NCBI GenBank assembly: GCA_963756875.1
Contig: CAVWPA010000003.1
Span: 960,001-1,024,000 of the forward strand
DNA: 64,000 nt
Reading direction: 5' to 3'
Origin: an uncultured Verrucomicrobiae bacterium
GTDB taxonomy: Bacteria; Verrucomicrobiota; Verrucomicrobiia; Chthoniobacterales; UBA10450
In this document: positions 3,995-63,607 of the stretch, one piece after another
How the letters are laid out: each line of letters opens with the position of its first letter
Numbering within the stretch: the first letter of the stretch is position 1
Notes under the pieces: model-generated
What the model saw: the letters and a program-made list of their open reading frames with translations, nothing else
Databases searched by the model: none
What the model was told of the DNA's origin: nothing
Program-made: the position numbers and the translations under genes

Positions 3995-6262
3995 GTGGAA
4001 TTCGAAAAAAATACCATTCTTTTTGGCGCTGATGCCACGGCGTGCATTGTCGCAGTTGAACTCGGCGAGACGGGCACCGTGAAGGTTCATCGCCGCGAAG
4101 AGGATGGATCGACCATTGCCGAGGTTGAGCCGTTTCATCCATTTGTCTGGGTCGATTCCGATGCGGCCGATCTTGGCTATGAAAATGCGCAAAAACTCGA
4201 AGGCGATCTGAGATATGACTGGTTGATTACCGTTGATAGCTGGAAGGAACTGATCGCGCTGCGCAATGGACTAAAGAAAGCCGGTCGCGCTTTTTTTGCC
4301 TTCTCCGATCCAATCCAGCATTATCTCACCGCAACTGGGCGGACGTTGTTCAAAGGCCTGCCGTTCGAAAAGCTCAAGCGAATGCAGCTTGAGGTGCTTT
4401 CGCGTGAACCCGGGACCATCGGTCCCGATGACGCCGACCATCTTATGGGGATCGCGCTTTCCGATAATACGGGCTGGGAGGAGCTGATCCGCGTCGATCT
4501 CAAAAATGTCGAAGAATCGGAGCACGCGGCGATCAAGCGGCTGACGAGTCTTATCAAGGAGCGCGACCCGGACGTGATCGAGGGGCACAATTTGTTTCGG
4601 TCTACTCTGCCATATCTGGTTTTGCGCGCCAAAAGGTTGAAAACAAAGCTCGATTGGGGACGAAGCGGAGGTTTCCTGCGATCGCGCCCTTCGCGGCTGC
4701 AAATTGCCGAAAAGACCATTGATTATCCGAAGTTCGCGATCGACGGGCGCCACTTCGTCGACACGTTTCTGCTCGCGCAATTTTACGATATCGGCATGCG
4801 TTCGCTTGCCGGCTTCGAGCGGATCGATGTCGCGCGTCATTTTGGGTTTTGCGAGAGCGAAGAGCTTTCCATGCTTGCGGGCAAGGAATTAGAGCGGGCC
4901 TACAGGAGTGGGGACGATCGCTTTTGCAAGCGTGCGCTGTGCGCGGCGCGCGAAACCCGGGCCATCGCGGATCTGCTCAGTCCAAGCTACTTCATCCAGG
5001 CGCAGATTTTCCCGTACAATTACCAGGACGTGATCGTTCGCGGCAACGCCACGCGTATTAATGCTCTCTTTCTGCGGGAATACTTTCGGCAACGGCATTC
5101 GATCCCTGAGATGCCGATGGTGCGCGCGTTCGAAGGTGGTTATACAGACATATTCTTTACCGGCGTCGCGCACAACGTCTGGCATTGCGACGTCGCCTCT
5201 CTTTATCCGTCGATTATGCTGCAGTTCGATTGTTTTCCCGCAACCGACCAGCTGCAAATCTTCCGGCATTTGCTTACCGATCTCCGCACGTTTCGATTGG
5301 AAACAAAGAACGAAATGCGGAATGCGGAGAAGGAAAGCAACCAGTGGCATCATCTCCAGGCGCTGCAGAACACATTCAAGATCCTGATCAACAGCTTCTA
5401 CGGCTATCTTGGCTTCGCTCAGGGACATTTCGCCGATTTCGATGCGGCCGCCCGCGTCACGCAAATCGGACGGGAATTGTTGAAGAAGATGATCGACTGG
5501 CTCGATGCCGAGGGCGCGAGGGTAATTGAGGTCGATACCGACGGAATTTATTTTGTCCCACCTTCTTCGGCGTCTTCTGTAAAGGCAGGCGTGTCGCCTG
5601 CAAAGACCCAAACCAAAGCAGCCGACACGGCTGCCGCTACAGCAGAGGAGATCGACGCGTTGCATGCGGGCCTGGCGAGGGAATTGCCGCCCGGGATCGA
5701 GGTCGAATTTGATGAGCAATTCGAGGCGATGTTCAGCTACAAGGCGAAAAATTACGCTCTCCTGACGAAAGATGGCGAAGTCGTCATTAAAGGCGGCGCA
5801 CTAAAATCGCGTGGACTGGAGAAGTTCCAGCGCGTTTTTCTTGAGGAGATGATCAAGCTGATTATGGAAGGCAAACCCGGCGCAATTGCCGATCTACGGG
5901 ACCGGTTCGACCAAAAAATCCGCGGCCGCGAATGGAGCATCGACATGTTGATGAAGACCGACACGCTGCAGGATTCGCTGGAGAAGTATCGCGCGAAAAT
6001 TGCCGGTTCGGCTCGAAACCGCGCGGCGGCTTATGAACTAGCGCTTGCTAGCGGCCGCGATTACAAGCCCGGGGATCAGGTGAGTTATTACATCAAGGCG
6101 ACGCCAAAAAAGGTGGCGGCGTACGAGGCCGCCAAACTCGCGGGAGAGTTCGATCCGCAAAATCGCGACGAAAATATCGATTATTACGTCGCCAAGCTGG
6201 ATGAACTCGTAAAAAAATTCGCGTCGACGATTCCCACAGATACCCAGGCGGAACTGTTATAG
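3995..6262 (+). CDS. polB: Family B DNA polymerase (Pol II-like) with degenerate 3'-5' exonuclease motifs
   Basis: Motif A DVASLYPS, motif B KILINSFYG, motif C DTDG. GTG start follows GGAGG. C-terminal QAELL resembles a clamp-binding motif. Confidence 0.88.
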   Translation: MEFEKNTILFGADATACIVAVELGETGTVKVHRREEDGSTIAEVEPFHPFVWVDSDAADLGYENAQKLEGDLRYDWLITVDSWKELIALRNGLKKAGRAFFAFSDPIQHYLTATGRTLFKGLPFEKLKRMQLEVLSREPGTIGPDDADHLMGIALSDNTGWEELIRVDLKNVEESEHAAIKRLTSLIKERDPDVIEGHNLFRSTLPYLVLRAKRLKTKLDWGRSGGFLRSRPSRLQIAEKTIDYPKFAIDGRHFVDTFLLAQFYDIGMRSLAGFERIDVARHFGFCESEELSMLAGKELERAYRSGDDRFCKRALCAARETRAIADLLSPSYFIQAQIFPYNYQDVIVRGNATRINALFLREYFRQRHSIPEMPMVRAFEGGYTDIFFTGVAHNVWHCDVASLYPSIMLQFDCFPATDQLQIFRHLLTDLRTFRLETKNEMRNAEKESNQWHHLQALQNTFKILINSFYGYLGFAQGHFADFDAAARVTQIGRELLKKMIDWLDAEGARVIEVDTDGIYFVPPSSASSVKAGVSPAKTQTKAADTAAATAEEIDALHAGLARELPPGIEVEFDEQFEAMFSYKAKNYALLTKDGEVVIKGGALKSRGLEKFQRVFLEEMIKLIMEGKPGAIADLRDRFDQKIRGREWSIDMLMKTDTLQDSLEKYRAKIAGSARNRAAAYELALASGRDYKPGDQVSYYIKATPKKVAAYEAAKLAGEFDPQNRDENIDYYVAKLDELVKKFASTIPTDTQAELL
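5578..5641. repeat. REP-like double hairpin inserted in-frame in polB
   Basis: TGTAAAGGCAGGCGTGTCGCCTGC-spacer-GCAGCCGACACGGCTGCCGCTACA has the same TGTA(G)...CTACA architecture as the intergenic copies. Confidence 0.8.
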
Positions 6263-6302
6263 CGATTATGCGGACGTGTTCTCTTGGCTCCTACGGCGTG
6301 CG

Positions 6303-7643
6303 TTAGGCGGGTTCTGGGCCGGCGACGCCACCGAGCAATGCCGTTTCTTCATCGCGACGGACCTGTGCGAGAACCCGTTGTTTGCGACCTAACCAGAGGC
6401 TGAGCGCGCACCAGATCGCCGCCAGCGGCGCGGCCACGAATGAGATCCCGGTCAGCCCGAGACCGAACCACTGCAGCAACGGATACGACCAGGCGCCGAT
6501 CTGATCGCCTGTGCGATACACAAACGTGTCGATGAAACTCTTGGCCTTGTACTTATCCTCACGGCGCAACACCGTGAAGAGGACTTCGCGCGCGGGGCGC
6601 GTAATCGCGAAATTCCCGGCGCGGCGGAGGATCTGGAACGCGGCGAGAAACCCCAGCACCGGCACGAAACCCATGCCGAGGAATCCCAGCACGCTGAGCA
6701 AAGGTAAAAACGCGAGCGTGACGCCAACGCCGAACCATTTCAACAGACGGCCGGTAATAAGCAATTGCGCGATAATCGTGAGCGTGTTCACCGAAAGGTC
6801 GAGTTGGGCGAAAAACGCAGTCCGCGAGGCGCGATCGTGAAAATGATGGCCCGTGATGTCGGCCTGCTGAAAATAAACAAGCGTCGAGGTGATGGCGTGA
6901 AACAACATGAACGCGCAAATCCCCAGCAGGTAAGGCGAACGAACGATGTGCGAGACCCCGGCAAGAATTCCGCCCCCGATCGGTTTTTCCGCTCCTGGTT
7001 CCCGACGGTTTTCCGGGCGTTTCTGCGAACTGCCGGACTGTTTGAAATCGACCGGAAAGAATTTCACGCACCAGGGGCCGAGTTCCAGCATGGCGGCGGT
7101 GATCAGGATCAGGTTGGCTGAGCCTAGCTTGCGCACAAGCGAGGCCGTGATAATCGGACCGACGATCGCACCGACCGAACCACCGACACTGATAAATGCG
7201 AACAAGCGTTTGGCCTGCTCGCTATTAAAGACATCGGTCATGAACGCCCAGAAAAGGGTAACGACGAACAGATTGAAGACGCTGACCCAAACGTAGAAGG
7301 CCCGACCAACCCACACGTTTTCCGCCGGGGAAAGAGTGCGCATGAGAACGTAGAAAATCACGAGGTTCGCCATGAAAAAGCGATAGGCGATCGGGATGAA
7401 TTTTCGCCGGGACATGCGCGCGACGATTGCCGAGAAGAGCGCATTCGCGATCAACATCGCCGTCAACGTGCCGGTAAACATCCACGACAGACTTTTGATG
7501 CTGCCTGATGCAGCGATGTCGTCGCGGATGGGACGAATGACGTAATAGCTTCCGAGGATGACGAAATTAAAAACGCAGGCGAGACCGAGCGCGCGGATCT
7601 CTTCGGGTCGAACATCGACGATTTTGGCAAAAAGCTTTTTCAC
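6303..7643 (-). CDS. MFS transporter, NTP/NDP exchanger (TLC)-like
   Basis: About 12 TM segments, YYVIRPIRD, FWAFMTDVF...QAKRLFAFI, KYKAKSFIDTFVYRTGD. Confidence 0.8.
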   Translation of the reverse strand: MKKLFAKIVDVRPEEIRALGLACVFNFVILGSYYVIRPIRDDIAASGSIKSLSWMFTGTLTAMLIANALFSAIVARMSRRKFIPIAYRFFMANLVIFYVLMRTLSPAENVWVGRAFYVWVSVFNLFVVTLFWAFMTDVFNSEQAKRLFAFISVGGSVGAIVGPIITASLVRKLGSANLILITAAMLELGPWCVKFFPVDFKQSGSSQKRPENRREPGAEKPIGGGILAGVSHIVRSPYLLGICAFMLFHAITSTLVYFQQADITGHHFHDRASRTAFFAQLDLSVNTLTIIAQLLITGRLLKWFGVGVTLAFLPLLSVLGFLGMGFVPVLGFLAAFQILRRAGNFAITRPAREVLFTVLRREDKYKAKSFIDTFVYRTGDQIGAWSYPLLQWFGLGLTGISFVAAPLAAIWCALSLWLGRKQRVLAQVRRDEETALLGGVAGPEPA

Positions 7644-7645
7644 GT

Positions 7646-7703
7646 TGTAGCAACGGCGCTCTGTCGCCGTTAAGTAACGCCCCGGCAGAGCGGGGCGACT
7701 ACA
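7646..7703. repeat. REP-like doublet (TGTAG...CTACA) filling the intergenic space
   Basis: TGTAGCAACGGCGCTCTGTCGCCGTT...CGCCCCGGCAGAGCGGGGCGACTACA. It supplies the TAG stop of the upstream minus-strand gene. Confidence 0.8.
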
Positions 7704-8823
7704 TTTTCTTTTTCCACGCGGCGAGAACGTCGGCTTCGCGTTCCGGTGTGAGACCGGCGCGCAGCTTTAATTGCCGATCTTGTGGTTGGGATTTAAACCA
7801 GGCGAGCGTCTCTTGAGCCGTCTCTCCGAGCGGACGAAACGTCAGACCTTTTCCCAGCGCCCGGCTGATGCTCGTACGCGCCATCCCCAGTTCGTCGCCT
7901 GCCCACACCGGCATGTCGGACCACGCCTCGACCTTTTGCTGTTTCAGAAAATCGGCTGGCACCCAGACAAATTTTGAATCTGAATTCAGCGCGACTTTGA
8001 TTTCGCGCAACATTTCGCCGATCACGAGGGGCCTGGCCGGTCCGGTGGCATTGTAGATCCCGGTTTCCCGATTTTCGACCATGCGGATCGTCCACTCGGC
8101 AAGATCTCGCGCATCGATGAATTGCACCGGGTCGTCGGGAGTTCCGGGCGCGAGCACCTCGCCTCCACGATCGATGCGCACCGGCCAATACGTGAACCGG
8201 TCGGTCTCGTCGCGTGGGCCCACAATCAATCCGGGCCGAATAATCAGCGTCTTTCCGGGAAACCATTTCCCGGCCTCTTTCTCCGACATCGCTTTGAGCG
8301 GGCCGTAAGTTTTGAATCCCGACGCTTTCATTGCCGCGAGTGTTTCCTTGAAAGCATCCGGCCCATCATATTGCGCAAGGGGCGAATTCTCGTCGACGCC
8401 TTTGCTGGTATCGGCGTAAACGGAAATCGTGGAGATGAACACGTAGCGATCGACGTTGCCCTTCAAAATCTGCGCCGCGTCGCGCACCCAGGCCGGCAGG
8501 GTGGTGGGATTATCGATCGCGACGTCCCATCGCCGGTTTTTAAGAGCCTCGAGCTGGCCGTTGCGATCGCCGATCAACTGTTCGACTTCCTTCGGCAACT
8601 CGTGCGGATGGGTCTTACCGCGATTAAAGACCGTGACTTTGTGGCCGCGGCTTAGCGCGTAACGAACCTGAAATGGCCCGGTGAAACCTGTACCGCCGAG
8701 GATGAGGATGCGCATCGGTTTCACGGTTTTCTGTGCGAATAGACTTTTCGATTTTAAACCAAATGTCCCGCCCGCGGCGACGGCAGAGGATACCTTGATG
8801 AAGCGACGCCGGGTAATGTTCAT
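7699..8823 (-). CDS. Tat-exported NAD-dependent epimerase / isoflavone reductase-like SDR
   Basis: TRRRFIK twin-arginine signal, ILILGGTGFTG Rossmann motif, YGPLK catalytic motif. Confidence 0.88.
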   Translation of the reverse strand: MNITRRRFIKVSSAVAAGGTFGLKSKSLFAQKTVKPMRILILGGTGFTGPFQVRYALSRGHKVTVFNRGKTHPHELPKEVEQLIGDRNGQLEALKNRRWDVAIDNPTTLPAWVRDAAQILKGNVDRYVFISTISVYADTSKGVDENSPLAQYDGPDAFKETLAAMKASGFKTYGPLKAMSEKEAGKWFPGKTLIIRPGLIVGPRDETDRFTYWPVRIDRGGEVLAPGTPDDPVQFIDARDLAEWTIRMVENRETGIYNATGPARPLVIGEMLREIKVALNSDSKFVWVPADFLKQQKVEAWSDMPVWAGDELGMARTSISRALGKGLTFRPLGETAQETLAWFKSQPQDRQLKLRAGLTPEREADVLAAWKKKM

Positions 8824-8831
8824 TTTGTTCT

Positions 8832-8912
8832 TGTCATGTTGATCGCCATCGAGACATCTCTAATTGTTTTCGGATAACAGCAAGAGATTCCTCTACTTCA
8901 GTCGGAATGAGA
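8832..8912. repeat. TGTCAT...ATGA(C)A family palindromic repeat (degenerate copy)
   Basis: Ends and internal ATCTC/GAGAT arms resemble the copies at 20127-20244, 45387-45485 and the half copy at 32441-32454. Confidence 0.6.
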
Positions 8913-9055
8913 TCGTCGCAAACCCGGCGGTGACCAGCACAATTCCGGCGACCAACAATGTCCGCCATCTCCAGGATAATCTGGGAGCCGGCAAAGGACC
9001 CTTGCCGGACGAAAAAGCGCGGCAGCGAATGGTTGAATTTATTTCCGCTTTATAG
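8913..9055 (+). pseudogene. C-terminal remnant of an aldo/keto reductase
   Basis: IVANPAVTSTIPATNNVRHLQDNLGAGKGPLPDEKARQRM matches the AKR C-terminal IPxT...HL.DN pattern. The 5' part is absent. Confidence 0.7.
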
Positions 9056-9203
9056 GCCAGGCGCCGCGACTAAAGACCGTATTTGGAAGGCGCTCGCATG
9101 TGATGTTTAGACTTTTTGTGCTCTTCGCGGAGTTAAAAAAATCCGGGATTTTCGAAAAAACCAGTTGCGAAGGCAGCCGTCCTGCTTGATAAGTCGCGAC
9201 TTT

Positions 9204-9755
9204 ATGAGGAATCACCCCCATGCTTCCATCGGTGTTGCTGCTTCGATCCTGTTTGTTGCCAGCGCAATTCAAATCCATGCCGCTTCGTCAAAGTCGATCT
9301 TTGTATTCAAAGACCGACGGGGAAGGGCGCAGTCGGCAGAGGTTATAACAAAATATCAGCCGCGGAAGCTCCTTCACCCGTTCGCGAAGATCGACCCGAA
9401 GATCGACCCGAAGTTGCGTCGCGCAGCCACGATCGCCCAGGAACGCGCGCACGCGCATTCGCGTTCGCAATGCTGGCGCGCGGTGAAAGAGGCGCTGGTC
9501 GCTTCGGGAGTGATCCGTTCGTATCCGAAAACGGTTTACGCAAAGCAGGCCGGGCAAGAGCTCGTGCACAATTACGGATTCAGGAGATTGGCGGTGCATG
9601 ATCCGTTCAAGGCCCCGGTCGGTGCGGTCATCGTTTACGGGGCAAGCCGTGCAGCAGGTCACGTAGAGATCCGGACGAGAGACGGATTCGTGAGCGATTT
9701 CCGCTCAAAGACGCCTTCGCCGCGGCCCTTGCTCGGCGTTTACGCAAAATCGTAA
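9204..9755 (+). CDS. Secreted Cys-His (CHAP/NlpC-P60-like) putative peptidoglycan hydrolase, paralog 1
   Basis: Signal peptide, SQCWRAVKEAL, GAVIVYG...GHVEIRT...FVSDF. Confidence 0.6.
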   Translation: MRNHPHASIGVAASILFVASAIQIHAASSKSIFVFKDRRGRAQSAEVITKYQPRKLLHPFAKIDPKIDPKLRRAATIAQERAHAHSRSQCWRAVKEALVASGVIRSYPKTVYAKQAGQELVHNYGFRRLAVHDPFKAPVGAVIVYGASRAAGHVEIRTRDGFVSDFRSKTPSPRPLLGVYAKS

Positions 9756-9806
9756 ACGCAAAAGAGACTTGTCAGACTGGCACAGTCTCTGCGATAAAAA
9801 GCAGGC

Positions 9807-10364
9807 GTGCGACGGTTTGCTGTCTTGAGTTTCTGTTGTGGGGCGTGGCTTGCGCTTTTAACGACGCAAGCTTGGGCGCAGGGCGTCAACAAGTCCGGAT
9901 CGCGTTTTTACTATAAGAGTTCCTTCGGGAAAACCGTATCCGTCAGCGTTATCCATCATTACTGGCTGCGACCGATCGTTCATCCGCTGGCACACGTGGA
10001 TCCCAGACTCGACCCGAAGCTGCGACGCGCAGCAACCATTGCCGAAGAACGCGCCAGCGCGCATTCCAAGGCGCGGTGCTGGCATTTTGTAAAGGCGGCG
10101 CTGGTTGCCGCCGGCGTGATTAAATCTTACCCCAAAACCGCGTACGCGGCCGATGCTGGCAGGGAGCTGGTTCGGGACTACGGCTTCAGGCGATTGCCTA
10201 TTCATGATCCTTACGCTGCTCCCGTGGGTGCCGTGCTGGTCTACGGAAACCGAAATCGCGGTCACGTCGAACTTCGCACCAGGGACGGGTTCGCCAGCGA
10301 TTATCACAGCAAGTACCGCTGTTTTTATCCGCTCGTAGCCGTTTACGGTAAATTCTCTTCCTAG
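9807..10364 (+). CDS. Secreted Cys-His putative peptidoglycan hydrolase, paralog 2
   Basis: Signal peptide, ARCWHFVKAAL, GAVLVYG...GHVELRT...FASDY. It is clearly homologous to the upstream ORF. Confidence 0.6.
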   Translation: MRRFAVLSFCCGAWLALLTTQAWAQGVNKSGSRFYYKSSFGKTVSVSVIHHYWLRPIVHPLAHVDPRLDPKLRRAATIAEERASAHSKARCWHFVKAALVAAGVIKSYPKTAYAADAGRELVRDYGFRRLPIHDPYAAPVGAVLVYGNRNRGHVELRTRDGFASDYHSKYRCFYPLVAVYGKFSS

Positions 10365-10380
10365 AGAACCAGACCGGCTC

Positions 10381-10541
10381 TGGAAGCCGTCTCATAAATA
10401 GGAAGGGGTGCGTTGCCAGAGACCTGACACTGCTGCAAGGCGCGAAGAGAGAGAATATCCTTTATGGATCTTCGACCGACGAGCAACCCAGGAGCAGCAT
10501 CAAGGATCGAGCACCAGTCCCTGTTTATGAGATGGGTTCTA
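10381..10541. mobile_element. MITE-like non-coding element with ~18 bp terminal inverted repeats
   Basis: Left end TGGAAGCCGTCTCATAAA pairs imperfectly with right end TTTATGAGATGGGTTCTA. A solo right end occurs at 13155-13172. Confidence 0.6.
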
Positions 10542-12365
10542 AGCGTAAACAAGCAGATCGATCTCCTCCGGCAAAAGAGTCGAGACTTCGCGGATAATGT
10601 TTCCCCGAAGCATTTTAATGATCGCGTTCCGTTGCGGAGCGCCCAGAACAACGCGAGAAGCGCCGACGGTGGCGGCTACATCGACGATTGTCTCTGCGGC
10701 TGAGGGGCTGACCGCGTAACAAAAAAGAGGGGCTGGCTGATCGCTGGACTTATCCTTGGCGATGGAAAAGACCGTGCGAGCATCGGGATCTTCCTGCCAT
10801 TTGCGTCTGCGATCTTGCTCCGTGATGAACAATTGCTCGCGCACGAACAGCAGATACAGACGCCGGCCGGTTTCACGCGCCTCGCGCAATGCGAAGTCCA
10901 GAGTGCGCCCGGGCCCGCGAACGGCGCAAAGAATTGCTTCGCCGGCAGTCGAATCGGCCGTTGCTTGGGAAAGCTCGGCGCCTGCCACCGCAACGGCCGA
11001 AGTTTGCGCTGGCGCCGGAGCCGGTTCCTTTCGCGCCCGACTCTCCTGAACCAGTGAACGTAAAATCAATCCAACCGTCAGGATGGTGAGAACGAAATAA
11101 CGGGCGTGCGGCTTGTCGACGACGAGTGACAGTTCAATTGCCACCATCACCAGAAACGTTGCAAACATGAGTGTTCGTTCCCAGCTGCGGATTGACAATT
11201 TTTTGTCGGTCGACGTGGCGCCGAGATTGGCGGCGATCGCGCCGACCACTCCGACGGCGTAAAGTTCCGCCAGTCCGGCTATGTCTTTAACAAAGAGCAC
11301 GAGCGCGATTGGTATGAGCGTGGCGCAACACATGCCGAAGCTCGGCACGCCCCATTTGTTGAGATGGTGAAAAACCGGCGGCAACTCACGGTCTCGCGCC
11401 ATTAGAAACTGGATCATGATCAGAGCCACGATGGCGGTGTTCACGGCCGAGAGGAGCAGCATGGCAAAAACGACACTAACGACGAAACCGAAGACGTTGC
11501 CGGCAAGCGGTCCGAGCGCGCCGCCGACGAAAACCTTGCCCATGTAGCGCAACATGTAATCGCGCACTCCGTGGCCACCAGGGGCGGTGACATCGCCGTT
11601 GACGACGTGGAGGCCGTTGAGCGCATGCATCGCCAGGCCGAGCAGGGCGGTGAAAACACAGACCTCGATCATCACCCACAGGATTGCCGGCGTGGATGTT
11701 TTGCTCACCGAAGGATTCTCATCGGTGCTGCCCGGATTCAGCCGCATTACGCCCGTCGCGTTGGCGATCGCCTCGACGCCGGACAACGCAAGCACGATTC
11801 CCACAAAGCCGGTCCAGTTGCGCCAGAATCCGCCGTGAAGCGGCTGCAAATGTCCAATTGCCTGACCCAGATGAGGCAAGCTGAACAAACCCAGCGTTAC
11901 GACGACCAGGACCGTTGGGATGGATATAAGAAACGCCAGACCGCCGGTATGTTTGGGGCCGAGCAGGTTCAATAGTCCAATTACGAGGATCGCCGCGGCA
12001 GCGAATTTTTCCGGATGCGGCACACCGAGATATTGGAAGGCGGAAAGGGCGCTGATAGCCGCGGTGACCAGGTAATCGGCGATGAGCAAAAAAGCGCCGA
12101 CAATCGAGATGACTTCACTCCGGTGGCGCACGCTGGCATAAACACCACCCCCATCGGGATAGAGGCGGCAGATGATCATGTAATTGATACCCACCAGCGC
12201 AGTAAGCACGCACATCGCTGCGATGAGCCAGAACGAGGAGTAGCCTCCAATGGCGAAAGCCAGGCCGATGACGTAAGCCTTGCTCGTGCCCCAGTCGCCG
12301 TAGAGAATCGCCGCCGCACGCGGCGTATTTACGTTACGTGGACGCCTGATATTTGTCGGTATCAA
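10539..12365 (-). CDS. APC family permease with C-terminal universal stress protein (USP) domain
   Basis: GDWGTSKAY, YPDGGGVY, SGVEAIANA, about 12 TMs, then a soluble domain ending AETIVDVA...VVLGA...LRGNIIREV...DLLVY. Confidence 0.85.
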   Translation of the reverse strand: MIPTNIRRPRNVNTPRAAAILYGDWGTSKAYVIGLAFAIGGYSSFWLIAAMCVLTALVGINYMIICRLYPDGGGVYASVRHRSEVISIVGAFLLIADYLVTAAISALSAFQYLGVPHPEKFAAAAILVIGLLNLLGPKHTGGLAFLISIPTVLVVVTLGLFSLPHLGQAIGHLQPLHGGFWRNWTGFVGIVLALSGVEAIANATGVMRLNPGSTDENPSVSKTSTPAILWVMIEVCVFTALLGLAMHALNGLHVVNGDVTAPGGHGVRDYMLRYMGKVFVGGALGPLAGNVFGFVVSVVFAMLLLSAVNTAIVALIMIQFLMARDRELPPVFHHLNKWGVPSFGMCCATLIPIALVLFVKDIAGLAELYAVGVVGAIAANLGATSTDKKLSIRSWERTLMFATFLVMVAIELSLVVDKPHARYFVLTILTVGLILRSLVQESRARKEPAPAPAQTSAVAVAGAELSQATADSTAGEAILCAVRGPGRTLDFALREARETGRRLYLLFVREQLFITEQDRRRKWQEDPDARTVFSIAKDKSSDQPAPLFCYAVSPSAAETIVDVAATVGASRVVLGAPQRNAIIKMLRGNIIREVSTLLPEEIDLLVYA

Positions 12366-12428
12366 TTGATTGAGTCAAACCAGCGGGCGAATCCACGTCA
12401 AGCCGCCCGGCCTTGCGAATAGATGTCC

Positions 12429-13151: not shown

Positions 13152-13269
13152 GGATTTGTGAGATGGGTTCTATGCCATGCGAAACTTTCTCGTGCAAGCT
13201 CGGCAACGGCATCGTCGTCTGGGGTAGCAGTAGGGCATTCGGGCGACGCCTAACAAGAAAGGAGGAAAA

Positions 13270-13847: not shown

Positions 13848-13854
13848 TGCTGCG

Positions 13855-16144: not shown

Positions 16145-16149
16145 ATATT

Positions 16150-24148: not shown

Positions 24149-24249
24149 GGAATGCGCGAATTATCGGAGCAATGAAACTCTTCTCAACTTTCGGTCGCCG
24201 TGGCGAGGAGATCTACTCGCAATTGGCGAAACCGCGCGCCAGACAAAAT

Positions 24250-24351
24250 TGTAGGGCATCTCTGTGAGACGCCCGTCTTAGATTGGCGTCCGCCGCGGCG
24301 GACGCCCTGCGCAGCGATTCATTTAAGCGACGGTCATAGACCGCCGCTACA
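24250..24351. repeat. REP-like cluster
   Basis: TGTAGGGCATCTCTGTGAGACGCCC...GGCGTCCGCCGCGGCGGACGCCC...CGACGGTCATAGACCGCCGCTACA. Confidence 0.8.
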
Positions 24352-24372
24352 GAAGAACTCCTCTGCCGGAAA

Positions 24373-26698: not shown

Positions 26699-26774
26699 GG
26701 TGGCTGTAGCTCAATGGTAGAGCCCCAGATTGTGGTTCTGGTTGTTGCGGGTTCGAGTCCCGTCAGCCACCCCA
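26699..26774 (+). tRNA. tRNA-His (GTG)
   Basis: G-1, acceptor GTGGCTG/CAGCCAC, anticodon arm CCAGA-TTGTGGT-TCTGG, GGTTCGAGTCC, encoded CCA. Confidence 0.97.
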
Positions 26775-27347: not shown

Positions 27348-27421
27348 GTGTCTGTAGCTCAACCGGATAGAGCATCTGACTTCGGATCAGAAGGTTGTGG
27401 GTTCGAGTCCCTCCAGGCACG
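27348..27421 (+). tRNA. tRNA-Arg (TCG)
   Basis: Acceptor GTGTCTG/CAGGCAC, anticodon arm TCTGA-CTTCGGA-TCAGA, T-loop TTCGAGT. CCA is not encoded. Confidence 0.92.
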
Positions 27422-39210: not shown

Positions 39211-39283
39211 GGGTCGGTAGCTCAATCGGTAGAGCAGCGCCCTTTTAAGGCGTTGGTTCCGGGTTCGAGTCCCGGCCGACCCA
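39211..39283 (+). tRNA. tRNA-Lys (TTT)
   Basis: Acceptor GGGTCGG/CCGACCC, anticodon arm GCGCC-CTTTTAA-GGCGT, GGTTCGAGTCC. Confidence 0.96.
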
Positions 39284-46866: not shown

Positions 46867-46955
46867 CTCTCACCAGGCCCTTTCATGTCCTCCTGTCCAT
46901 GGGGGGAGAGGATTGCCTGCCGCGCCGTAGCAAGGTGTAGACGGGAGGTGAGGGC
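46867..46955. repeat. CTCACC...GGAGAGG...GGTGAG palindromic repeat with nested insert
   Basis: Same family as the insertion in imuB (62773-62846). Confidence 0.55.
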
Positions 46956-55890: not shown

Positions 55891-55897
55891 TTCAACC

Positions 55898-56449: not shown

Positions 56450-56514
56450 TCCCGGCGCGCTAGCAGCCGGCGATCACCACGCCGTGGCTTCAGCGAAGGC
56501 GGGTCGAGTGGAAC

Positions 56515-57093
56515 CTACTTATCCGACGCGATAACTTCGCGGTGTCGCCACGTGTATCCCAGGCCGGAGTAAACGGTGAGCGCCACAGTGATCCAGACCA
56601 GAACCGGTCCAGCTTCGCGCCACGCGCGCAACCACCAGGTCGAGTTTTCGCCTGCGTAATGCAATTCGTCTATCGATAATAACAGCAGAAAAAAGATCAC
56701 CGTGATCACCTGCCACGAAGTTTTTTGTTTTCCCAACCGTTCCGCCGGCAGGACGCGGCCCTGTGCGCTGGCCATTAACCGCAAGCCGGTAATCAGGAAA
56801 TCGCGCGCGACCACGGTGGTTGCGGCCCAGGCGGGAATTGCTTTAAGCGGCACCAGCGAGATGAAGGCCGCGGCGATCATGATCTTGTCGACGAGTGGAT
56901 CCATCAACTTCCCGAAGTTGGTGACGATGGCGTAACGGCGCGCAATCTCGCCATCAATAAAGTCGGTCAAACCCGCGATCAGGAACATCACGAGCGCGCA
57001 GGTGCGGCCGTAATGCCAGGAAGAATTCAGCGCGATTACAAAAAGAATCGTTAGCAGCAGACGGCTGATCGTTAAACGGTTGGCCCAGTTCAT
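56515..57093 (-). CDS. pgsA: CDP-diacylglycerol--glycerol-3-phosphate 3-phosphatidyltransferase
   Basis: ANRLTISR and D..DG.IAR...TNFGKLMDPLVDK CDP-alcohol signature. Confidence 0.92.
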   Translation of the reverse strand: MNWANRLTISRLLLTILFVIALNSSWHYGRTCALVMFLIAGLTDFIDGEIARRYAIVTNFGKLMDPLVDKIMIAAAFISLVPLKAIPAWAATTVVARDFLITGLRLMASAQGRVLPAERLGKQKTSWQVITVIFFLLLLSIDELHYAGENSTWWLRAWREAGPVLVWITVALTVYSGLGYTWRHREVIASDK

Positions 57094-57545
57094 TTCACTG
57101 TCGCAGGGATGGGCTGTTCCTGCCAGTTGTCAGCATCTTTGGCGATGGAAGCGCCGGCCTGGAATTTCGGGTGCTTCCAAATCGGAACTCTTCTTTTTAA
57201 TTCATCAACAACCCACTGGCTTGCCTCGAATGCTTTCGCCCGATGACCGGCCGCTACCCGGAGAAACAACGATGCTTCTCCGGCAGGCACAAAACCGGTC
57301 CGATGATGAATGACGACTTTCTTGAGGCGGAAATTTTCCGCGGCTTCTTCAGCCACTAGTCGCAGTTGATGTTCGGCCATCTTCGGATGCGCTTCGTAAT
57401 CGATTCCTTCGATTTGTCGCCCTGCTTCGGATGCCCGGACGACGCCCCAAAAGTCGAGATGCGCTCCGGCGCCGGGATCAGAATACCGCCCGGGCGTTTC
57501 CAGCCGCGCCGCTGTCAGTAGGACTTCGCAAAGGGGATTTGCCAT
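57090..57545 (-). CDS. moaE: Molybdopterin synthase catalytic subunit
   Basis: GA...F.GVVR, YEAH..MA, HRTG, HR..AF, LK..VPIWK. Confidence 0.9.
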   Translation of the reverse strand: MANPLCEVLLTAARLETPGRYSDPGAGAHLDFWGVVRASEAGRQIEGIDYEAHPKMAEHQLRLVAEEAAENFRLKKVVIHHRTGFVPAGEASLFLRVAAGHRAKAFEASQWVVDELKRRVPIWKHPKFQAGASIAKDADNWQEQPIPATVK

Positions 57546-57609
57546 TCGCCTCGATTAATCGTTACAGTAAACTCGCGCTTGTCGCGCTGTTTATCAAAGG
57601 AGACCCAAA

Positions 57610-59094
57610 ATGAGCTCGAATCAATGTGATATCGGCCTGATCGGCCTCGCCGTAATGGGCGAAAATCTTGTCCTAAACCTCGAATCGAAGGGCTTTTCCG
57701 TGGCTGTTTTTAATCGCACGACTGAGGTCACTGAAAAGTTCGCGGCGAGTCGGGCCAAAGGGAAAAATATTCAACCTACGAAAACCATCGAGGAGTTCGT
57801 TGCCGCGCTCAAACGGCCGCGCAAAGCGATGATGATGATCAAAGCCGGTAAACCGGTCGATCAGGTCATCGGTGAGCTGACCCCGCTTTTAGAAAAAGGG
57901 GATGTGATTATCGACGGCGGAAATTCGTTGTTCACCGACACGCAGCGCCGCTGCAAGGATTTGGAAGGCCGCGGAATTCATTATGTCGGTTGCGGTGTTT
58001 CCGGCGGCGAAGAAGGGGCGCTCAAGGGTCCGTCGCTGATGCCAGGCGGCTCGCGCGCGTCGTGGGAAATCATCGCGCCCATCTTCCGCAAGATTGCGGC
58101 GCAAGTGGATGGCGAACCGTGTGTCCGGTACATGGGCCCGGATGGCGCCGGCCATTACGTCAAGATGGTGCACAACGGAATCGAGTACGGCGACATGCAG
58201 CTTATTTGCGAGGCCTACGCAATCATGAAGAGCGTCATCGGAATGGATGCATCCCAACTGGCAGACGTCTTTACGGAATGGAACAAGGGCGAGCTCGACA
58301 GCTATCTCATCGAAATTACTTCACAGATTTTTCGCAAGATCGATCCCGATACCGGGAAGCCACTGGTCGACGTGATCCTCGATAAAGCCGGTCAGAAAGG
58401 CACCGGCCTCTGGACGTTGCAATCCGCCATTCAACAGTCGGTCGTTATTTCCACGATCAATGCCGCGGTGGAAGCGCGGGTGATTTCATCCCGCAAAGAC
58501 GAGCGTGTTGCTTCCTCGAAAATTCTTCCGCAACCGAAACCGAGAAAGTATAAAGGTGACCCAAAACAGCTGATCGATGCGGTGCGCAATGCGCTTTATG
58601 CGTCCAAGATCGTTTCTTACGCGCAGGGGATGGAACTTCTTGGGGCCGCCAGCCATCAATACAACTGGAACCTGAACTTCGGCGACATCGCTACCATCTG
58701 GCGTGGCGGATGTATCATTCGCGCCAAATTTTTAAATCGCATCGTGGAAGCGTATCAGCGGAATCCCTCGCTTCATAATCTGCTTCTGGATTCCTATTTC
58801 ACGGACATCATCGCAAAAACGCAGGAGAACTGGCGCGTCGCCGTCTCCGCGGCGATCGAACATGGCGTCGCGGTTCCGGCGTTTTCCGCGTCGCTTGCCT
58901 ATTTCGACAGTTATCGGCAGGCGCGGTTGCCGGCGAATTTGCTGCAGGCGCAACGCGACTTTTTCGGCGCGCATACCTACGAACGGGTCGATAAACCGGG
59001 CGTGTTTCATACCGAATGGCTGGAATCCGATCAAAAATCGTCGCAGAAATCCGCGTCGCCAAAGGAACCATCGCAGCGGCACGCCGCCGAATGA
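57610..59094 (+). CDS. gnd: 6-phosphogluconate dehydrogenase, NADP-dependent, decarboxylating
   Basis: GLAVMG, DGGN, VSGGEEGA, KMVHNGIEYG, QKGTG, QAQRDFFGAH. Confidence 0.97.
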   Translation: MSSNQCDIGLIGLAVMGENLVLNLESKGFSVAVFNRTTEVTEKFAASRAKGKNIQPTKTIEEFVAALKRPRKAMMMIKAGKPVDQVIGELTPLLEKGDVIIDGGNSLFTDTQRRCKDLEGRGIHYVGCGVSGGEEGALKGPSLMPGGSRASWEIIAPIFRKIAAQVDGEPCVRYMGPDGAGHYVKMVHNGIEYGDMQLICEAYAIMKSVIGMDASQLADVFTEWNKGELDSYLIEITSQIFRKIDPDTGKPLVDVILDKAGQKGTGLWTLQSAIQQSVVISTINAAVEARVISSRKDERVASSKILPQPKPRKYKGDPKQLIDAVRNALYASKIVSYAQGMELLGAASHQYNWNLNFGDIATIWRGGCIIRAKFLNRIVEAYQRNPSLHNLLLDSYFTDIIAKTQENWRVAVSAAIEHGVAVPAFSASLAYFDSYRQARLPANLLQAQRDFFGAHTYERVDKPGVFHTEWLESDQKSSQKSASPKEPSQRHAAE

Positions 59095-59158
59095 GGTAGG
59101 GACGCCTTTCCGAGGCGTCCGTGGAATTCGTCGGACATCTCGGAGAGATGTCCCTACC
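59095..59158. repeat. REP-like doublet (GGTAG...CTACC) between convergent gnd and dnaE2
   Basis: GGTAGGGACGCCTTTCCGAGGCGTCC...GGACATCTCGGAGAGATGTCCCTACC. It supplies the dnaE2 stop. Confidence 0.85.
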
Positions 59159-62100
59159 TGAAATCGTGCGACTCGCTCCCAATGAGCCGCTCGTCCAATA
59201 GCGGTTTGATGTCGCGCGTTTTGATCAGCACGACGCCGTCGGAATTTTGCACTTCGCCTGTAATGAGCAAAAAAGCTTCCTCGGTAATGACCAGACGGAA
59301 TCGTTCGAACAAATCCGGATCAACAATGGCATTGGAAACACCGGTCTCGTCTTCGAGGCTGATGAAAACAAATCCTTTCGCGGTCCCGGGGCGTTGACGG
59401 CAAATTACATTTCCAGCGATCTGAACAGTTACGCCATGTTTCGCATGCGTGAGATCGGTCGCGCGCCAGATGTTGGACAACTTCTCGCGCAGCAATTTCA
59501 TCGGATGCGGCCCGGTCGTCAGGTTCATCGTTTCGTAATCCGCGCGCACACGTTCCGGGAGCGTCATCGGAAGAAGCGGCAATTTTCGCGTCCTGGGAGC
59601 GCACGCGCCCTCGCGTGCCACATTCGGCGCCTCGCCGAATGTACAACGAACATCCGAAAAGTCGTCCAAAGCTGAAGAGTTTCCGGCGAGGGCGCCGGAA
59701 ACAGCACGCGAGGCGCGTGCGCTCCCCGGACGATCCAGCAAATCGTCGTGCAGCGTCTTCTCCACTTTCCACATCGCCGCGCGGCGATGATCCGCAAAAC
59801 AATTGAGCGCGCCGAGTTCCGCGAGCGTTCGCAATTCTTCTCTTGAAAATCGAACGCGCCGCTTGAAATCTTCGAGCGAATCGAATCGCCGCTCCTCCCG
59901 TTGTCGAACAAGTTCATCGGCGCGGGCCTGATGCAATCCGTTTACCACGCAAAATCCGAGGCGGACGGTATCGTCGGAAACAACCGAGCAGCGCCATGCC
60001 GATTGTTGCACGCATACCGGCTGCACCTTGATTCCATGCCGGCGCGCATCCTTTACGATCGTGGCAGGTGTATAAAAACCCATCGGCTGATTATTGAGCA
60101 GGCTGACGTAAAACTCCGGGGCGCGATGCACTTTCAAATAGGCGCTCCCATAGGCCAGAATCGCGAAACTGATGGCGTGCGATTCCGGAAACCCGTAAAG
60201 GGCAAACGAGCTGATCGATTGAATAATCTTGTCGATCTTGTCGGGCGCGACCTCTTTCCGCTCCATCGCGGCGCGCAGTTTCAGGCTCACTTTGTTCATC
60301 CGCTCCTCCGATCGGTGAAAACTGAGCGCGCGCCGCAATTCTTCCGCTTCGTTTCCGGAGAAATCGGCCATGATCATGGCGATTTTCAGCATTTGTTCCT
60401 GGAATAACGGAACACCAAGGGTGCGGCCTAAGATCGGCTCCAATCGCGGATCGAAATAAGTCACCGGTTCGCGGCCGGCGCGCCGTGCCAGATAGGGATG
60501 CACCATGTCGCCCTGGATCGGTCCCGGCCGGATGATCGCCACTTCAATTACGACATCGTAAAAACATTTCGGTTTCATCCGTGGCAGCGTGGCCATTTGC
60601 GCGCGGCTCTCGATTTGAAAAACTCCGATCGTGTCGGCCTTCTGCATGATCCGGAATGTGGCTGCGTCGTCCTTGGGAATGTGAGCAAGGTCGAGAGGTC
60701 GCCCACGCTCGCGGCAAAGCTCAAATGCATCCTGCATGACCGACATCATGCCGAGGCCTAACAAATCGACTTTCACGATGCCCAGATCCTCGCAATCGTC
60801 CTTGTCCCATTGCGCAACCACGCGGCCAGGCATCGAGGCATTTTCCAGCGGCACGAACGAGCTCAATTTATTCTGGCAGATGATCATTCCGCCGGAATGC
60901 TGACCGAGATGCCGCGGCAATCCGTAAATGGAGCGATAGAGCCTGGCGAAAGCGGGCATGCGCGGATGCCCTTTTGGCAAACCGGCTTGTTCGATTTGCG
61001 ATTGGAGATCGAGCGTGTGGGGGAAATCGCCGTTTGCGAACAAATGCGAGAAGCGATCGAGAATGCCCGGCGAAAAATTCAGCGCCTTGCCGATTTCACG
61101 AGCGGCGCTTCGCCCGCGATAAGTGATTACGTTCGCCGTCATGGCCGCGCCATGTTTGCCGTAGCGGCGATAAATCTCCTGAATAACGCTTTCACGCCGG
61201 TCGCCGCTGGGAAGATCGAGATCGATATCGGGCCAGCCTTTGCGGCTCTCGTTTAAAAAACGTTCGAAAACGAGATGATTGCTCACCGGATCGACCGGCG
61301 TGATGCCGAGACAATAACAAACAGCGCTGTTCGCGGCGCTGCCACGGCCCTGCACCATGACGTTATGCTCGCGACAAAAATTGATGATGTCCCAGACAAT
61401 CAAAAAATATCCCGAGAAGCCGAGTTTCTGAATCAGTGCCAGTTCCTCTTCGATCTGGCGTTTCACCGCGGCACTAACCGCGGCGTACCGTTGCTGCGCG
61501 CCAAACCAGACGATCGTGCGCAGGAACGAATCCATGCTGTGACCCGCGGGCACGGGAAAATCGGGAAACTCGTAACCGATATTTTCGAGCGAAAATGTGA
61601 GCCGCTCGGCCACGCGCGCCGTGTTTTCGATCGCTTCCGGCAAATCGCGAAAGAGTTCTCGCATTTCGCGATCGCTCTTCAAATAGCGCTCGGCGTTTTG
61701 GGTCAATAGTTTGCCGGCGGCATCCAGGTGCGTGTGCTCGCGAATGCAGGTAAATACGTCGACCACTTCGCGTCCGGATGGCTTGGCATATTCCACGCCG
61801 TTCGTAGCCAGGATCGGCAATCGATGTGCACGGGCGAGATCGACCAGTTCGCGGTTTGCGCGTTCTTCGCCACGCACAAAATGCCGCTGGATTTCCACGA
61901 AAACATTTTCACGGCCAAAGGTGTCGATAAGAAGTTTGGCACCATCTGCGGATTTGTAGGGCGTTTCTGTGAAACGCCGCTCAAGGTTGGTGTCTGACAC
62001 AGACGCCCTACAATTTGCAAGCGATGCGTTGAAAAATGCGACCAGCCCTTCCGCGAATTGCGGCAGCTCCTTCCATTGCACGGCGCATTTTCCTTTCTCG

Positions 62101-62396
62101 CTCCGCAGATGCGCCTGGGTGAGCAGTTCGCACAAATTTTTGTAACCGGCGCGATTTTCGACCAGCACCGGCAAAACAGCGCCATCATCCATCGACAATT
62201 CGCAACCGATGATTGGCCGGACATTGCTCTCGCGCGCGGCGACCGAAAAACGTTGCAACCCGTAAACGCCATTGCGATCGAGCAAAGCCATCGCCGGCAT
62301 CTCCAGTCTGGCTGCGGTCTCGGCCAATTGTTCCGGAAACGAACCGCCGCGCAAAAAACTAAACGCGCTGCAGGCATGTAACTCGATGTAAGACAT
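59154..62396 (-). CDS. dnaE2: Error-prone DNA polymerase III alpha (DnaE2/ImuC)
   Basis: YIELH..SAFSFL PHP start, GRGSAANS, PDIDLD, PRHLGQHSGG, YGFPESH, RQRPGTAKG, C-terminal SHDFR. Confidence 0.95.
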   Translation of the reverse strand: MSYIELHACSAFSFLRGGSFPEQLAETAARLEMPAMALLDRNGVYGLQRFSVAARESNVRPIIGCELSMDDGAVLPVLVENRAGYKNLCELLTQAHLRSEKGKCAVQWKELPQFAEGLVAFFNASLANCRASVSDTNLERRFTETPYKSADGAKLLIDTFGRENVFVEIQRHFVRGEERANRELVDLARAHRLPILATNGVEYAKPSGREVVDVFTCIREHTHLDAAGKLLTQNAERYLKSDREMRELFRDLPEAIENTARVAERLTFSLENIGYEFPDFPVPAGHSMDSFLRTIVWFGAQQRYAAVSAAVKRQIEEELALIQKLGFSGYFLIVWDIINFCREHNVMVQGRGSAANSAVCYCLGITPVDPVSNHLVFERFLNESRKGWPDIDLDLPSGDRRESVIQEIYRRYGKHGAAMTANVITYRGRSAAREIGKALNFSPGILDRFSHLFANGDFPHTLDLQSQIEQAGLPKGHPRMPAFARLYRSIYGLPRHLGQHSGGMIICQNKLSSFVPLENASMPGRVVAQWDKDDCEDLGIVKVDLLGLGMMSVMQDAFELCRERGRPLDLAHIPKDDAATFRIMQKADTIGVFQIESRAQMATLPRMKPKCFYDVVIEVAIIRPGPIQGDMVHPYLARRAGREPVTYFDPRLEPILGRTLGVPLFQEQMLKIAMIMADFSGNEAEELRRALSFHRSEERMNKVSLKLRAAMERKEVAPDKIDKIIQSISSFALYGFPESHAISFAILAYGSAYLKVHRAPEFYVSLLNNQPMGFYTPATIVKDARRHGIKVQPVCVQQSAWRCSVVSDDTVRLGFCVVNGLHQARADELVRQREERRFDSLEDFKRRVRFSREELRTLAELGALNCFADHRRAAMWKVEKTLHDDLLDRPGSARASRAVSGALAGNSSALDDFSDVRCTFGEAPNVAREGACAPRTRKLPLLPMTLPERVRADYETMNLTTGPHPMKLLREKLSNIWRATDLTHAKHGVTVQIAGNVICRQRPGTAKGFVFISLEDETGVSNAIVDPDLFERFRLVITEEAFLLITGEVQNSDGVVLIKTRDIKPLLDERLIGSESHDFR
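59595..59726. repeat. GGGAGCGCACGCG-family palindromic element inserted in-frame in dnaE2
   Basis: GGGAGCGCACGCGCCCTCGCGTGC..TTCGGCGCCTCGCCGAA-spacer-TTCCGGCGAGGGCGCCGGAA..GCACGCGAGGCGCGTGCGCTCCC. Confidence 0.85.
61955..62012. repeat. REP-like doublet inserted in-frame in the dnaE2 PHP domain
   Basis: TGTAGGGCGTTTCTGTGAAACGCC...GGTGTCTGACACAGACGCCCTACA, the same family as 24250. Confidence 0.85.
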
Positions 62397-62403
62397 GGGA
62401 GGC

Positions 62404-62473
62404 TGTAGCGGCGGTCTATGATCGTCGCTCGATATCAATGGTTGCGACCCCGAAAGCATTCGGGGCCGCTACA
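62404..62473. repeat. REP-like doublet between imuB and dnaE2
   Basis: TGTAGCGGCGGTCTATGATCGTCGC...CCCCGAAAGCATTCGGGGCCGCTACA. Confidence 0.75.
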
Positions 62474-62482
62474 GGTGGCTGG

Positions 62483-63607
62483 CTAATCATAAATCCCGTC
62501 GACCTTCCACGTTCCGTCGCTTTCATGAGCGCGAATCACTTCGCCATCCTCCAGTTGCAGGTCCCACTCGGCGCGCGCCCACGATTTTTCGTCCCACCAA
62601 TTGCCGGAAAGCGAATAAGGGCCTCGCTGGTTCGCGATGTTGCCGTTGACTTTCGCGCTCTGAAGAAAAGCGGGAATATTTTCCGAAATAAAAACCGACG
62701 CAGGGGCGGCTGATCGAAATCGGCGCAACGCTGCACCTTCCCTCACCGCCGTGCCACAGGACGTTCGCTTCTCCCTCTCTCCCGCTGGGAGAGACGGACG
62801 CGAAGCGCCAGTGAGGGTAAATGAGCGGGGTGGGGAGAGGGGAGGGTAAGGGCCATCAGTTCCATTCGCGTTCGCGCTCAAATTCCACATAAACGGTTCT
62901 ATCCGGAACGCGTCCGGCCGATGTGTTTCTTCCAAAACAGGCGTGCCCACCCGGTCCGCGCCAAGCAACGCGCTCAAACGCGCAAGTGTTTCATAGAGTC
63001 GATGTGGATTGCGCAACGACGTCTCGAACAATCCAAATTGCCGCGAGGCGGGCCGGATTGGCTGCGCGATTAACGCGACAGCAACGATCGGATGGTTCGC
63101 TTTGAAATTTTCCAGATGCGTCTGGAGCATTCGGAAAAGAAGATCGACATCATTGGTCGGCTCCGGAATTTTAAAAACGCGTTCGTAAATCTGCTTGTCC
63201 GTGAAAGCGATCCGCAGGGTCAGTTCCTTGCTGACGAGATAGATGCTGCTTAACCGCAACGCGAGCTGTTCCAAAAACCGCCGCAGCATAAAAAAGAGCG
63301 GCTCCGCCGTTTCGATCTCGTTTTCGAATTCGAAACTTTCCTCGAACGACTCCGGCGGTTGGACAAATTGAAGTAATCGAGTGGAGTGGCCATTGGCGCG
63401 TTCCCAAAGCCGGGCCGCTTCGGGGCCAAGTCGCGCACGAAGCTCCTCTTTATCCAGCGCAGCAAACTGGCCGAGCGTGTGAATCCCCCACTTGTGCAGG
63501 ATGCCGAGGATCTCTTCTGTAATTGCGCGTTGGCCTCCGGCTCGGAGAGCCATACGGTTCGGAAAGGCGTTGTCCCTTCTGGCCCTTCTTAAATTAGAGC
63601 GCTCCAT
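62483..63607 (-). CDS. imuB: ImuB-like inactive Y-family polymerase, N-terminally truncated
   Basis: LHKWGIHTLGQF thumb, little-finger region, QFGLF clamp motif, THRPDAF, GP...SGNWW...GIYD C-terminus. It lies directly upstream of dnaE2. Confidence 0.8.
   Translation of the reverse strand: MERSNLRRARRDNAFPNRMALRAGGQRAITEEILGILHKWGIHTLGQFAALDKEELRARLGPEAARLWERANGHSTRLLQFVQPPESFEESFEFENEIETAEPLFFMLRRFLEQLALRLSSIYLVSKELTLRIAFTDKQIYERVFKIPEPTNDVDLLFRMLQTHLENFKANHPIVAVALIAQPIRPASRQFGLFETSLRNPHRLYETLARLSALLGADRVGTPVLEETHRPDAFRIEPFMWNLSANANGTDGPYPPLSPPRSFTLTGASRPSLPAGEREKRTSCGTAVREGAALRRFRSAAPASVFISENIPAFLQSAKVNGNIANQRGPYSLSGNWWDEKSWARAEWDLQLEDGEVIRAHESDGTWKVDGIYD
62773..62846. repeat. CCCTCTC...GGGAGAG...GTGAGGG repeat in-frame in imuB
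   Basis: CTCTCCCGCTGGGAGAG hairpin plus GTGAGGG and GGGGAGAGGG, resembling 46867-46955. Confidence 0.6.

Follow-up and report, generated by a model that had tools for sequence, protein, structure and literature searches.

In the present study we analysed a stretch of 64,000 nucleotides (the window, G000:C3:960001-1024000) from the genome of an uncultured soil bacterium of the Verrucomicrobiae, G000, which comprises 2.69 Mb in 3 contigs with a GC content of 0.57. Four repeat-like segments lie here inside three genes: polB, which encodes a family-B DNA polymerase, dnaE2, which encodes an error-prone paralogue of the Pol III alpha subunit and holds two of them, and imuB (Table 1). We propose, with a probability of about 0.8, that these segments represent copies of mobile elements, non-autonomous and hairpin-forming, that have survived in frame, at sites refilled by different families. 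The proposal is carried by the family membership of the segments, their intact frames, empty sites in relatives, transposase genes flanked by the repeats, an enrichment in genes of DNA replication and repair and the existence of insertion hot spots, all of which were observed.

The four segments are read through without any stop codon, as had been predicted from the letters of the window (the original prediction), and in alignments with homologues the boundaries of inserts and repeats agree within about one codon. Two kinds of element may be distinguished, namely dimers of GTAG-type repetitive extragenic palindromes (REPs), of family C in polB and of family D in the PHP domain of dnaE2, and a miniature transposable element of the inverted-repeat type (MITE) with terminal inverted repeats (TIRs) before the OB fold of dnaE2, to which the composite repeat of imuB is to be added. 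The four elements represent four families and not three, as was first supposed. The polB element, an inverted two-unit dimer encoding roughly ...SSVKAGVSPAKTQTKAADTAAATAE..., reads TGTAA(G)...CTACAG, and the element of the PHP domain, an inverted dimer as well, reads TTGTAGGG...CCCTACAA; both carry the tag that characterises GTAG REPs. Folding as DNA against 200 shuffles per element gave z values of -6.7 for the polB element, -4.3 for that of the PHP domain and -10.4 for that before the OB fold, and in these three cases none of the shuffles equalled the native sequence. All four segments are multi-copy in the genome, as determined with blastn-short (E<=1, self included), with 135 matches for polB (best non-self match 31 nt at 97%), 47 for the PHP element (28 nt at 100%), 206 for the element before the OB fold (50 nt at 100%) and 14 for the imuB repeat (47 nt at 96%; copies of 92-96% over 42-54 nt), the last being related to a short CCTCTCCCT/AGGGAGAGG hairpin family. 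The predicted likeness of the segment at 61955 to an intergenic copy at 24250 was reproduced, whereas no match to the segment at 62773 was found at 46867.

The occupancy of the polB site was followed in orthologues drawn from whole genomes of the same family and the same order as G000. In a first set, a 21-aa stretch was found in 7 of 13 relatives, against 46 aa in the window. Following the addition of 79 further PolB loci, both anchors were present in 90 of 93 loci; of these, 46 are empty (21 aa), 4 exceed this length by 2 to 4 aa and the remaining 40 by 15 to 42 aa. The relatives reached via PolB are metagenome-assembled genomes labelled Chthoniobacterales, Candidatus Udaeobacter or Verrucomicrobiota, and the insert counts take in rows L026, L030, L032, L040 and L041 from the unpublished genomes G002, G007 and G014. 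The larger inserts form five recurring types, besides unclassified others; of the inserts inspected as DNA, most are TGTAG...CTACA dimers in a common reading phase. On a tree of 78 PolB proteins, from which the insert columns were removed, the site needs at least 22 changes between empty and filled, and 26 if insert types are counted. The sister taxa L133 and L145 hold different families at the site; furthermore, it is empty in L089 and occupied by two other families in L088 and L091. PolB has this one hot spot, filled in 35 of the 78 proteins, every other internal site being filled in 3 of the 78 at most. The Pfam domain DNA_pol_B (residues 433-752) spans the insert of the window at about residues 537-562.

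A similar behaviour was observed in other proteins. Among 12 DnaE2 loci, large indel regions occur only at the two insert sites, and L008 is empty at both, the extra residues of the window (about 150-169 and 912-956) fitting the repeats within about one codon. The PHP domain (residues 26-193) spans the former insert, and HHH_6 (809-894) and the OB fold (1012-1087) flank the latter; both sites are occupied by GTAG dimers in some genera and by TIR-type MITEs in others. MutS likewise shows one hot spot, filled in 8 of 26 sequences (rows L249 and L256 coming from unpublished genomes) by several hairpin families. In ImuB, the linker between the anchors measures 17-22 aa in 9 of 13 orthologues, 36 aa in L034 and L046 and 54 aa in the window. 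Alignment of the DNA reveals a hairpin module common to the window, L034 and L046 and an extra 53-54 nt (18 codons) present in the window only, the hairpin module being the older part. A family C unit occupies the same linker in G017, and L035 carries a unit of the polB type there. The open frames of ImuB measure 261-393 aa in all genomes of family f1 (loci L034-L046), whereas three further families of the order have frames of 492-549 aa; throughout f1 the N-terminal, polymerase-like part seems to be absent. An ORF (open reading frame) at 63686-65632 lies upstream of imuB. As to dnaE2, its matches in relatives start at query residues 10-22, and translation probably begins at the Met at about 62396, in which case the family B unit at the beginning of the longest frame would sit in the spacer between imuB and dnaE2.

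Table 1. Genes, repeat elements and related features of the window (positions counted from its first nucleotide).
Feature	Position	Strand	Remarks
polB, family-B DNA polymerase	3962-6262	+	766 aa ORF; Pfam DNA_pol_B and DNA_pol_B_exo1; orthologues 76-83% identical
Family C GTAG REP dimer, REPIN-like (inverted REP doublet)	5578-5642	+	in frame in polB, about 7 codons past the DTDG motif
dnaE2, error-prone Pol III alpha paralogue	59154-62459	-	1101 aa as longest frame
Family A TIR-type MITE	59595-59730	-	about 44 codons, in frame in dnaE2, after HHH_6 and before the OB fold
Family D GTAG REP dimer	61954-62013	-	60 nt (20 codons), in frame in dnaE2, PHP domain, residues about 150-169
Family B REP unit	62403-62429		first 19 codons of the longest dnaE2 frame; 69 family B units in the genome
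imuB	62483-63607	-	374 aa ORF
Composite repeat-derived linker	62766-62852	-	in frame in imuB
14-nt inverted repeat	63637-63650		30 nt upstream of imuB; possible LexA box
Intergenic cluster	24246-24352		family D dimer (24246-24305) and family B unit; extragenic relatives of the dnaE2 elements

The repeats of the whole genome were mapped from 15-mers with at least 6 copies, the families being defined by over-represented 14- and 15-mers and their units counted with fuzzy signatures; a map based on 12-mers (at least 8 copies) was dropped, its 3386 intervals being mostly compositional. An element was considered to lie in a gene when a single stop-free frame runs across it and extends for 150 nt or more on either side, both flanks scoring as coding. 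At least 12 families with 733 units were found, 95 of the units standing in frame in ORFs, and every family has such copies (6-27% of its units), in agreement with the prediction of a multi-family repeat system that adds peptide segments to proteins. Families C (136 units, 18 or 13% in ORFs) and D (49 units, 8%) are mostly extragenic, and family A amounts to 128 TIR units.

The transposases named in the original prediction, of the RAYT (REP-associated tyrosine transposase) or IS200 type, are represented by six matches to Y1_Tnp (PF01797), of the RAYT type with HUH motif. On its two sides the RAYT at C3:12137 has 5 and 3 family C dimers, hence arrays of the repeat found in polB, as is characteristic of a cognate RAYT, and the transposase gene at C2:136900 has family G on both flanks. 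Two further transposase genes, copies of a 573-nt element, carry family A units inverted at both ends, like TIRs. In 30 transposase copies the stretches PDHVH and Y-I-x-R-N-P-W are conserved, corresponding to the HUH motif and the catalytic Tyr. When window 59580-59745 was aligned to both 573-nt copies, the left end proved to be shared over about 55 nt and the right end over about 50 nt, and the middle was absent. Because both ends align to the 573-nt elements and the middle is lacking, the alignment identifies the dnaE2 MITE as an internal-deletion derivative of this Y1-transposase element.

We propose that the copies would be moved as single-stranded DNA by the Y1/HUH transposases of the genome itself, both RAYTs and TIR-flanked RAYT-like enzymes. 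Copies inside genes would persist only if they are in frame, free of stops and situated within a tolerant loop or an interdomain linker, where they would be translated as loops of 20-45 residues rich in Ala, Gly, Ser, Pro and Arg. In the course of evolution different families fill, vacate and refill the same one or two sites per gene.

Across the genome, 49 of 433 merged elements satisfy this definition of an in-frame position, as compared with 1639 of 3000 random 60-nt intervals (55%), which amounts to an about five-fold depletion. The 49 elements are spread over 38 host ORFs, three of which have no Pfam family, and Pfam domains stand on both sides of inserts in the host ORFs. The hosts of replication and repair are polB, dnaE2, MutS, MutL, UvrA (6 elements), UvrB, FtsK, SMC, DnaX and an HhH-GPD glycosylase; MetH (4 elements), ThiC, AlaRS, TGT, TilS, TsaD, TrpA, ArgJ, Dxr, IspG, RNase R, an E2 acyltransferase and others are found among the rest. 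The uvrA gene (G000:C3:700928-705391) forms one uninterrupted frame of 1488 aa holding six elements from three families or more; UvrA is ordinarily about 950 aa long. As a length-weighted control, random intervals in 40 random 20-kb blocks were submitted to the same criterion, giving 163 hits in 135 ORFs. Eight of the latter belong to replication, repair or chromosome handling (DnaB, SMC, LigA, a UvrA paralogue, a UvrD-like helicase, DnaG, RmuC and a Xer-like integrase), as compared with 10 of the 38 hosts (Fisher p=0.001, odds ratio 5.7). Without SMC and FtsK the figures are 8/38 and 7/135 (p=0.005); counted by elements they are 17/49 and 10/163 (p=2e-6), a value inflated by the six elements in UvrA. 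The original prediction had suggested a bias towards polymerase genes. Copies in ORFs of the window are indeed confined to polymerase genes, and genome-wide polymerase subunits make up 3 of 38 hosts and 0 of 135 controls (p=0.01); nevertheless, the hosts in the genome reach further, and the supported bias is a real one for the wider class of DNA replication and repair.

One of the two 573-nt copies, at G000:C2:26122-26694, is itself located in frame, in the metH ORF C2:23186-27811 (1542 aa). It lies between the homocysteine and pterin domains, with the HUH and Tyr motifs, and the frame remains open through both terminal repeats. A search of 121 genomes of the family with the 192-aa translation of the element gave matches in 74, and 98 of 121 matches (E<=1e-15; one row from the unpublished G007) lie in stop-free frames of 425-1663 aa. 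In a sample of 21 hosts, made up of 20 copies picked for long frames and one best match, the element occupies one MetH site once, a second MetH site 3 times, AlaRS 9 times, ThrRS once and RecG 7 times; Pfam detected the host domains in these ORFs, Y1_Tnp in 5 and no intein family. Five copies embedded in MetH gave a ratio of non-synonymous to synonymous substitution rates (dN/dS) of 0.066 for the transposase core, against 0.07-0.11 for the MetH flanks, which are rough estimates with saturated dS. Tentatively, and with more doubt than confidence, we suggest that repeats and transposases together make up a guild of single-strand DNA transposons which are compatible with coding sequence and home to particular sites in housekeeping and repair genes. 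The autonomous 573-nt (191-codon) element, devoid of a start codon of its own, would be translated along with its host MetH, AlaRS, ThrRS or RecG, of which it would form an internal domain under purifying selection; deletion derivatives such as the dnaE2 insert and GTAG dimers would share its landing sites, and a few loops in polymerases and repair proteins would be turned over like intein sites. A separate observation concerns locus L231 (G075:C4), where ORF 1570-5961, a frame of 1464 aa, joins RecJ-like domains (DHH, DHHA1, RecJ_OB) to RecG, be it as a fusion or as two neighbouring genes in one frame, the transposase standing in the RecG part.

That homologues might carry the segments as conserved protein sequence, a doubt already voiced with the original prediction, applies in part. 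A peptide similar to that of polB occurs in L020-L022 and in some ten further loci, L034 and L046 possess the older part of the imuB linker, and TIR-type inserts stand at the identical position before the OB fold of dnaE2 in L003-L006; these data speak for old linkers, vertically inherited and merely palindrome-like, with no mobile insertion. However, empty sites exist for all four segments, further copies of these sequences are scattered over the genome in tens, for the most part between genes, and at the polB site close sisters differ by carrying unrelated families. The existence of empty sites and of extragenic copies largely refutes this explanation, and we give it hardly any credence. Insertion at random is an explanation of greater weight, though still an unlikely one, in which selection alone would produce both the hot spots and the surplus of inserts in repair genes, owing to few tolerant sites, low expression and long modular proteins. 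The depletion in ORFs shows that selection acts, the inserts lie between Pfam domains or in variable loops, and modular proteins and linkers are discussed as an explanation by Di Nocera, De Gregorio and Rocco (2013, BMC Genomics 14:522, PMC3733652). On the other hand, the single preferred site of PolB with its repeated changes of state and the excess that persists against a length-weighted control speak against this explanation, and one site per protein of about 800 aa seems to us too few if any surface loop sufficed. We rather favour the view that the hot spots reflect a preference for insertion sites on top of a filter of selection.

Retention of the inserts for a function, either by tuning or weakening repair and translesion proteins in a mutator-like manner or as RNA hairpins in the mRNAs, appears improbable. 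The enrichment in replication and repair genes would fit with it, as would the excess across phyla reported in PMC3733652, where the mutator-like version was put forward as a speculation, and the fact that UvrA with its six elements is still one open frame. Nonetheless, the sequence inserted at each site is not conserved, being swapped for unrelated families and often absent, and many hosts are unrelated to repair. A coupling of insertion to the SOS response, by which genes transcribed while single-stranded DNA and transposase are abundant would be hit, had been offered as a cause by the original prediction and is even more improbable. The 14-nt inverted repeat upstream of imuB, which fits a putative LexA-box pattern of Verrucomicrobia (TGTTC-N4-GAACA type), is the only perfect match to this pattern in the window (1.95 are expected at one mismatch or less) and precedes imuB-dnaE2, the carrier of three of the four inserts; UvrA and UvrB are, moreover, SOS genes in many bacteria. 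There are just three perfect matches genome-wide, one of them inside a gene; another, at C3:941085-941098, lies just downstream of lexA (C3:941603-941791) and 23 nt upstream of the gene that follows on this strand; the copies by imuB and lexA are possible LexA boxes. No LexA-type box was found near polB even with two mismatches, and most hosts, among them MutS, MutL, DnaX, FtsK, SMC and those of metabolism, are not known as SOS genes. Hosts such as MutS, DnaX or the metabolic enzymes find no explanation in the coupling, and neither it nor a link to SOS beyond the imuB-dnaE2 operon is supported.

Several points weigh against the proposal of mobile elements refilling preferred sites. The prediction of four palindromes stands for three, the imuB segment (z -0.78, 42 of 200 shuffles equal) being a repeat with a short hairpin and without a significant palindrome; no cognate transposase was established for it in the RAYT neighbourhoods of the genome. 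Nor does family D have a clear cognate RAYT, one D-like unit standing beside the RAYT at C1:672335, whose flanks hold other hairpins. That the inserts are translated is deduced from the intact frames; among the sequencing runs listed for the locus, 7 DNA runs shared 5-7% of its words and no RNA run appeared. The hot spots could stem from a very narrow tolerance of the proteins instead of targeting, and no target motif common to the elements was found: AGATCGAC stands near 2 of the 433 elements, against 43 of 5000 random intervals. The PolB tree was calculated with FastTree alone. The AlphaFold2 model of PolB, built from a 36-row alignment, is poor (mean predicted local distance difference test, pLDDT, 59.5; predicted template modelling score 0.52); its residues 537-557 have a pLDDT below 50, which weakly suggests that the insert may be a disordered loop. 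Genes were called with a crude hexamer caller of our own (2349 genes, 84% coding), control ORFs running over the edge of a 20-kb block were dropped, with long genes slightly under-sampled in consequence, and the Pfam cut-offs were unequal, 1e-5 for hosts and 1e-12 for controls, 20 of the 135 controls having no family.

The octamer AGATCGAC had been considered as a target since it stands at the empty polB and dnaE2 sites, and was discarded for not being enriched beside elements. Together with its complement it is the most over-represented 8-mer of the genome (Markov-6), with 297 and 299 copies and an observed/expected ratio of 1.25-1.32. GATCGA, examined as a further target, is if anything depleted (17 of 433 elements, 443 of 5000 random intervals). 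Apart from the hairpin families, short tandem arrays of 7-8-nt units (AGAGGAC, GATTGCG, AGTTGAG and AAGCACC types) were noticed, often beside hairpin elements and at ORF starts, for instance at G000:C1:687878-687951 and C2:167252-167339. Three 53-nt direct repeats of the window (26718-26770, 27368-27420 and 39230-39282), with a GGTTCGAGTCC core, look like the 3' halves of tRNA genes.

Palindromic repeats lying in frame in intact ORFs and adding peptide segments are known from Rickettsia, an obligate intracellular alphaproteobacterium, as Rickettsia palindromic elements. The elements of the present study work alike, but they bear no sequence relation to the latter and display GTAG tags or GGGGAGCG-type TIRs, so they are not members of that group. 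According to PMC3733652, the Rickettsia elements end in CGTC and have no dedicated transposase. The same paper describes intragenic GTAG/CGTC REPs, mostly inverted dimers, which add 20-30 aa in frame and occur in DnaE2, uvrA (both copies in Opitutus terrae), uvrB, Pol I and recBCD; it gives the highest GTAG count for the verrucomicrobium Opitutus terrae, reports RAYT genes with REPs or TIRs at their borders ('TIRtrons' in the latter case), raises the possibility of non-random targeting and doubts that the bias is fortuitous. Our elements resemble these REPs in their GTAG hairpins, inverted dimers, in-frame position and replication and repair hosts, in another lineage (Chthoniobacterales and Candidatus Udaeobacter-labelled relatives). 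The core phenomenon has therefore been in print since 2013, which weakens its novelty here. What is added is the length-weighted enrichment, single hot spots hit repeatedly by different families in a set of about 90 genomes, the new hosts polB and imuB, and the tie of the dnaE2 insert to an in-frame transposase.

In the REPIN-RAYT system, inverted REP doublets are extragenic and a single-copy Y1 transposase is accompanied by the same REPs (Bertels and Rainey 2011, PMC3116915). This description suits family C with its RAYT at C3:12137, and mobilisation would proceed likewise; in contrast, 6-27% of the units of each family stand here in ORFs, with six transposase genes and several families in a 2.7-Mb genome. 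The 573-nt element recalls inteins and IStrons (the latter surveyed in PMC4227781), which are also selfish elements residing in essential genes without destroying them. It differs from them in that neither a Hint or splicing domain nor a ribozyme was found, Pfam giving Y1_Tnp only, and it seems to be read through. A limited literature search yielded no description of an in-frame transposase inside housekeeping genes, nor does the accessible part of PMC3733652 contain one.

The present findings provide a clear case, based on many genomes, in which essential proteins are remodelled by mobile hairpin DNA, and replicate the excess in replication and repair genes reported in 2013 with a length-weighted control. 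The reuse of sites by unrelated families, as seven codons past the DTDG motif of PolB, makes it possible to test chance against targeting. If the homing of in-frame transposons should be true, a defined DNA target would be expected for each hot spot, together with chimeric host-transposase proteins in the cell. For annotation, the long 'odd' UvrA, MetH, DnaE2 and AlaRS of these genomes are to be regarded as neither misassemblies nor pseudogenes.

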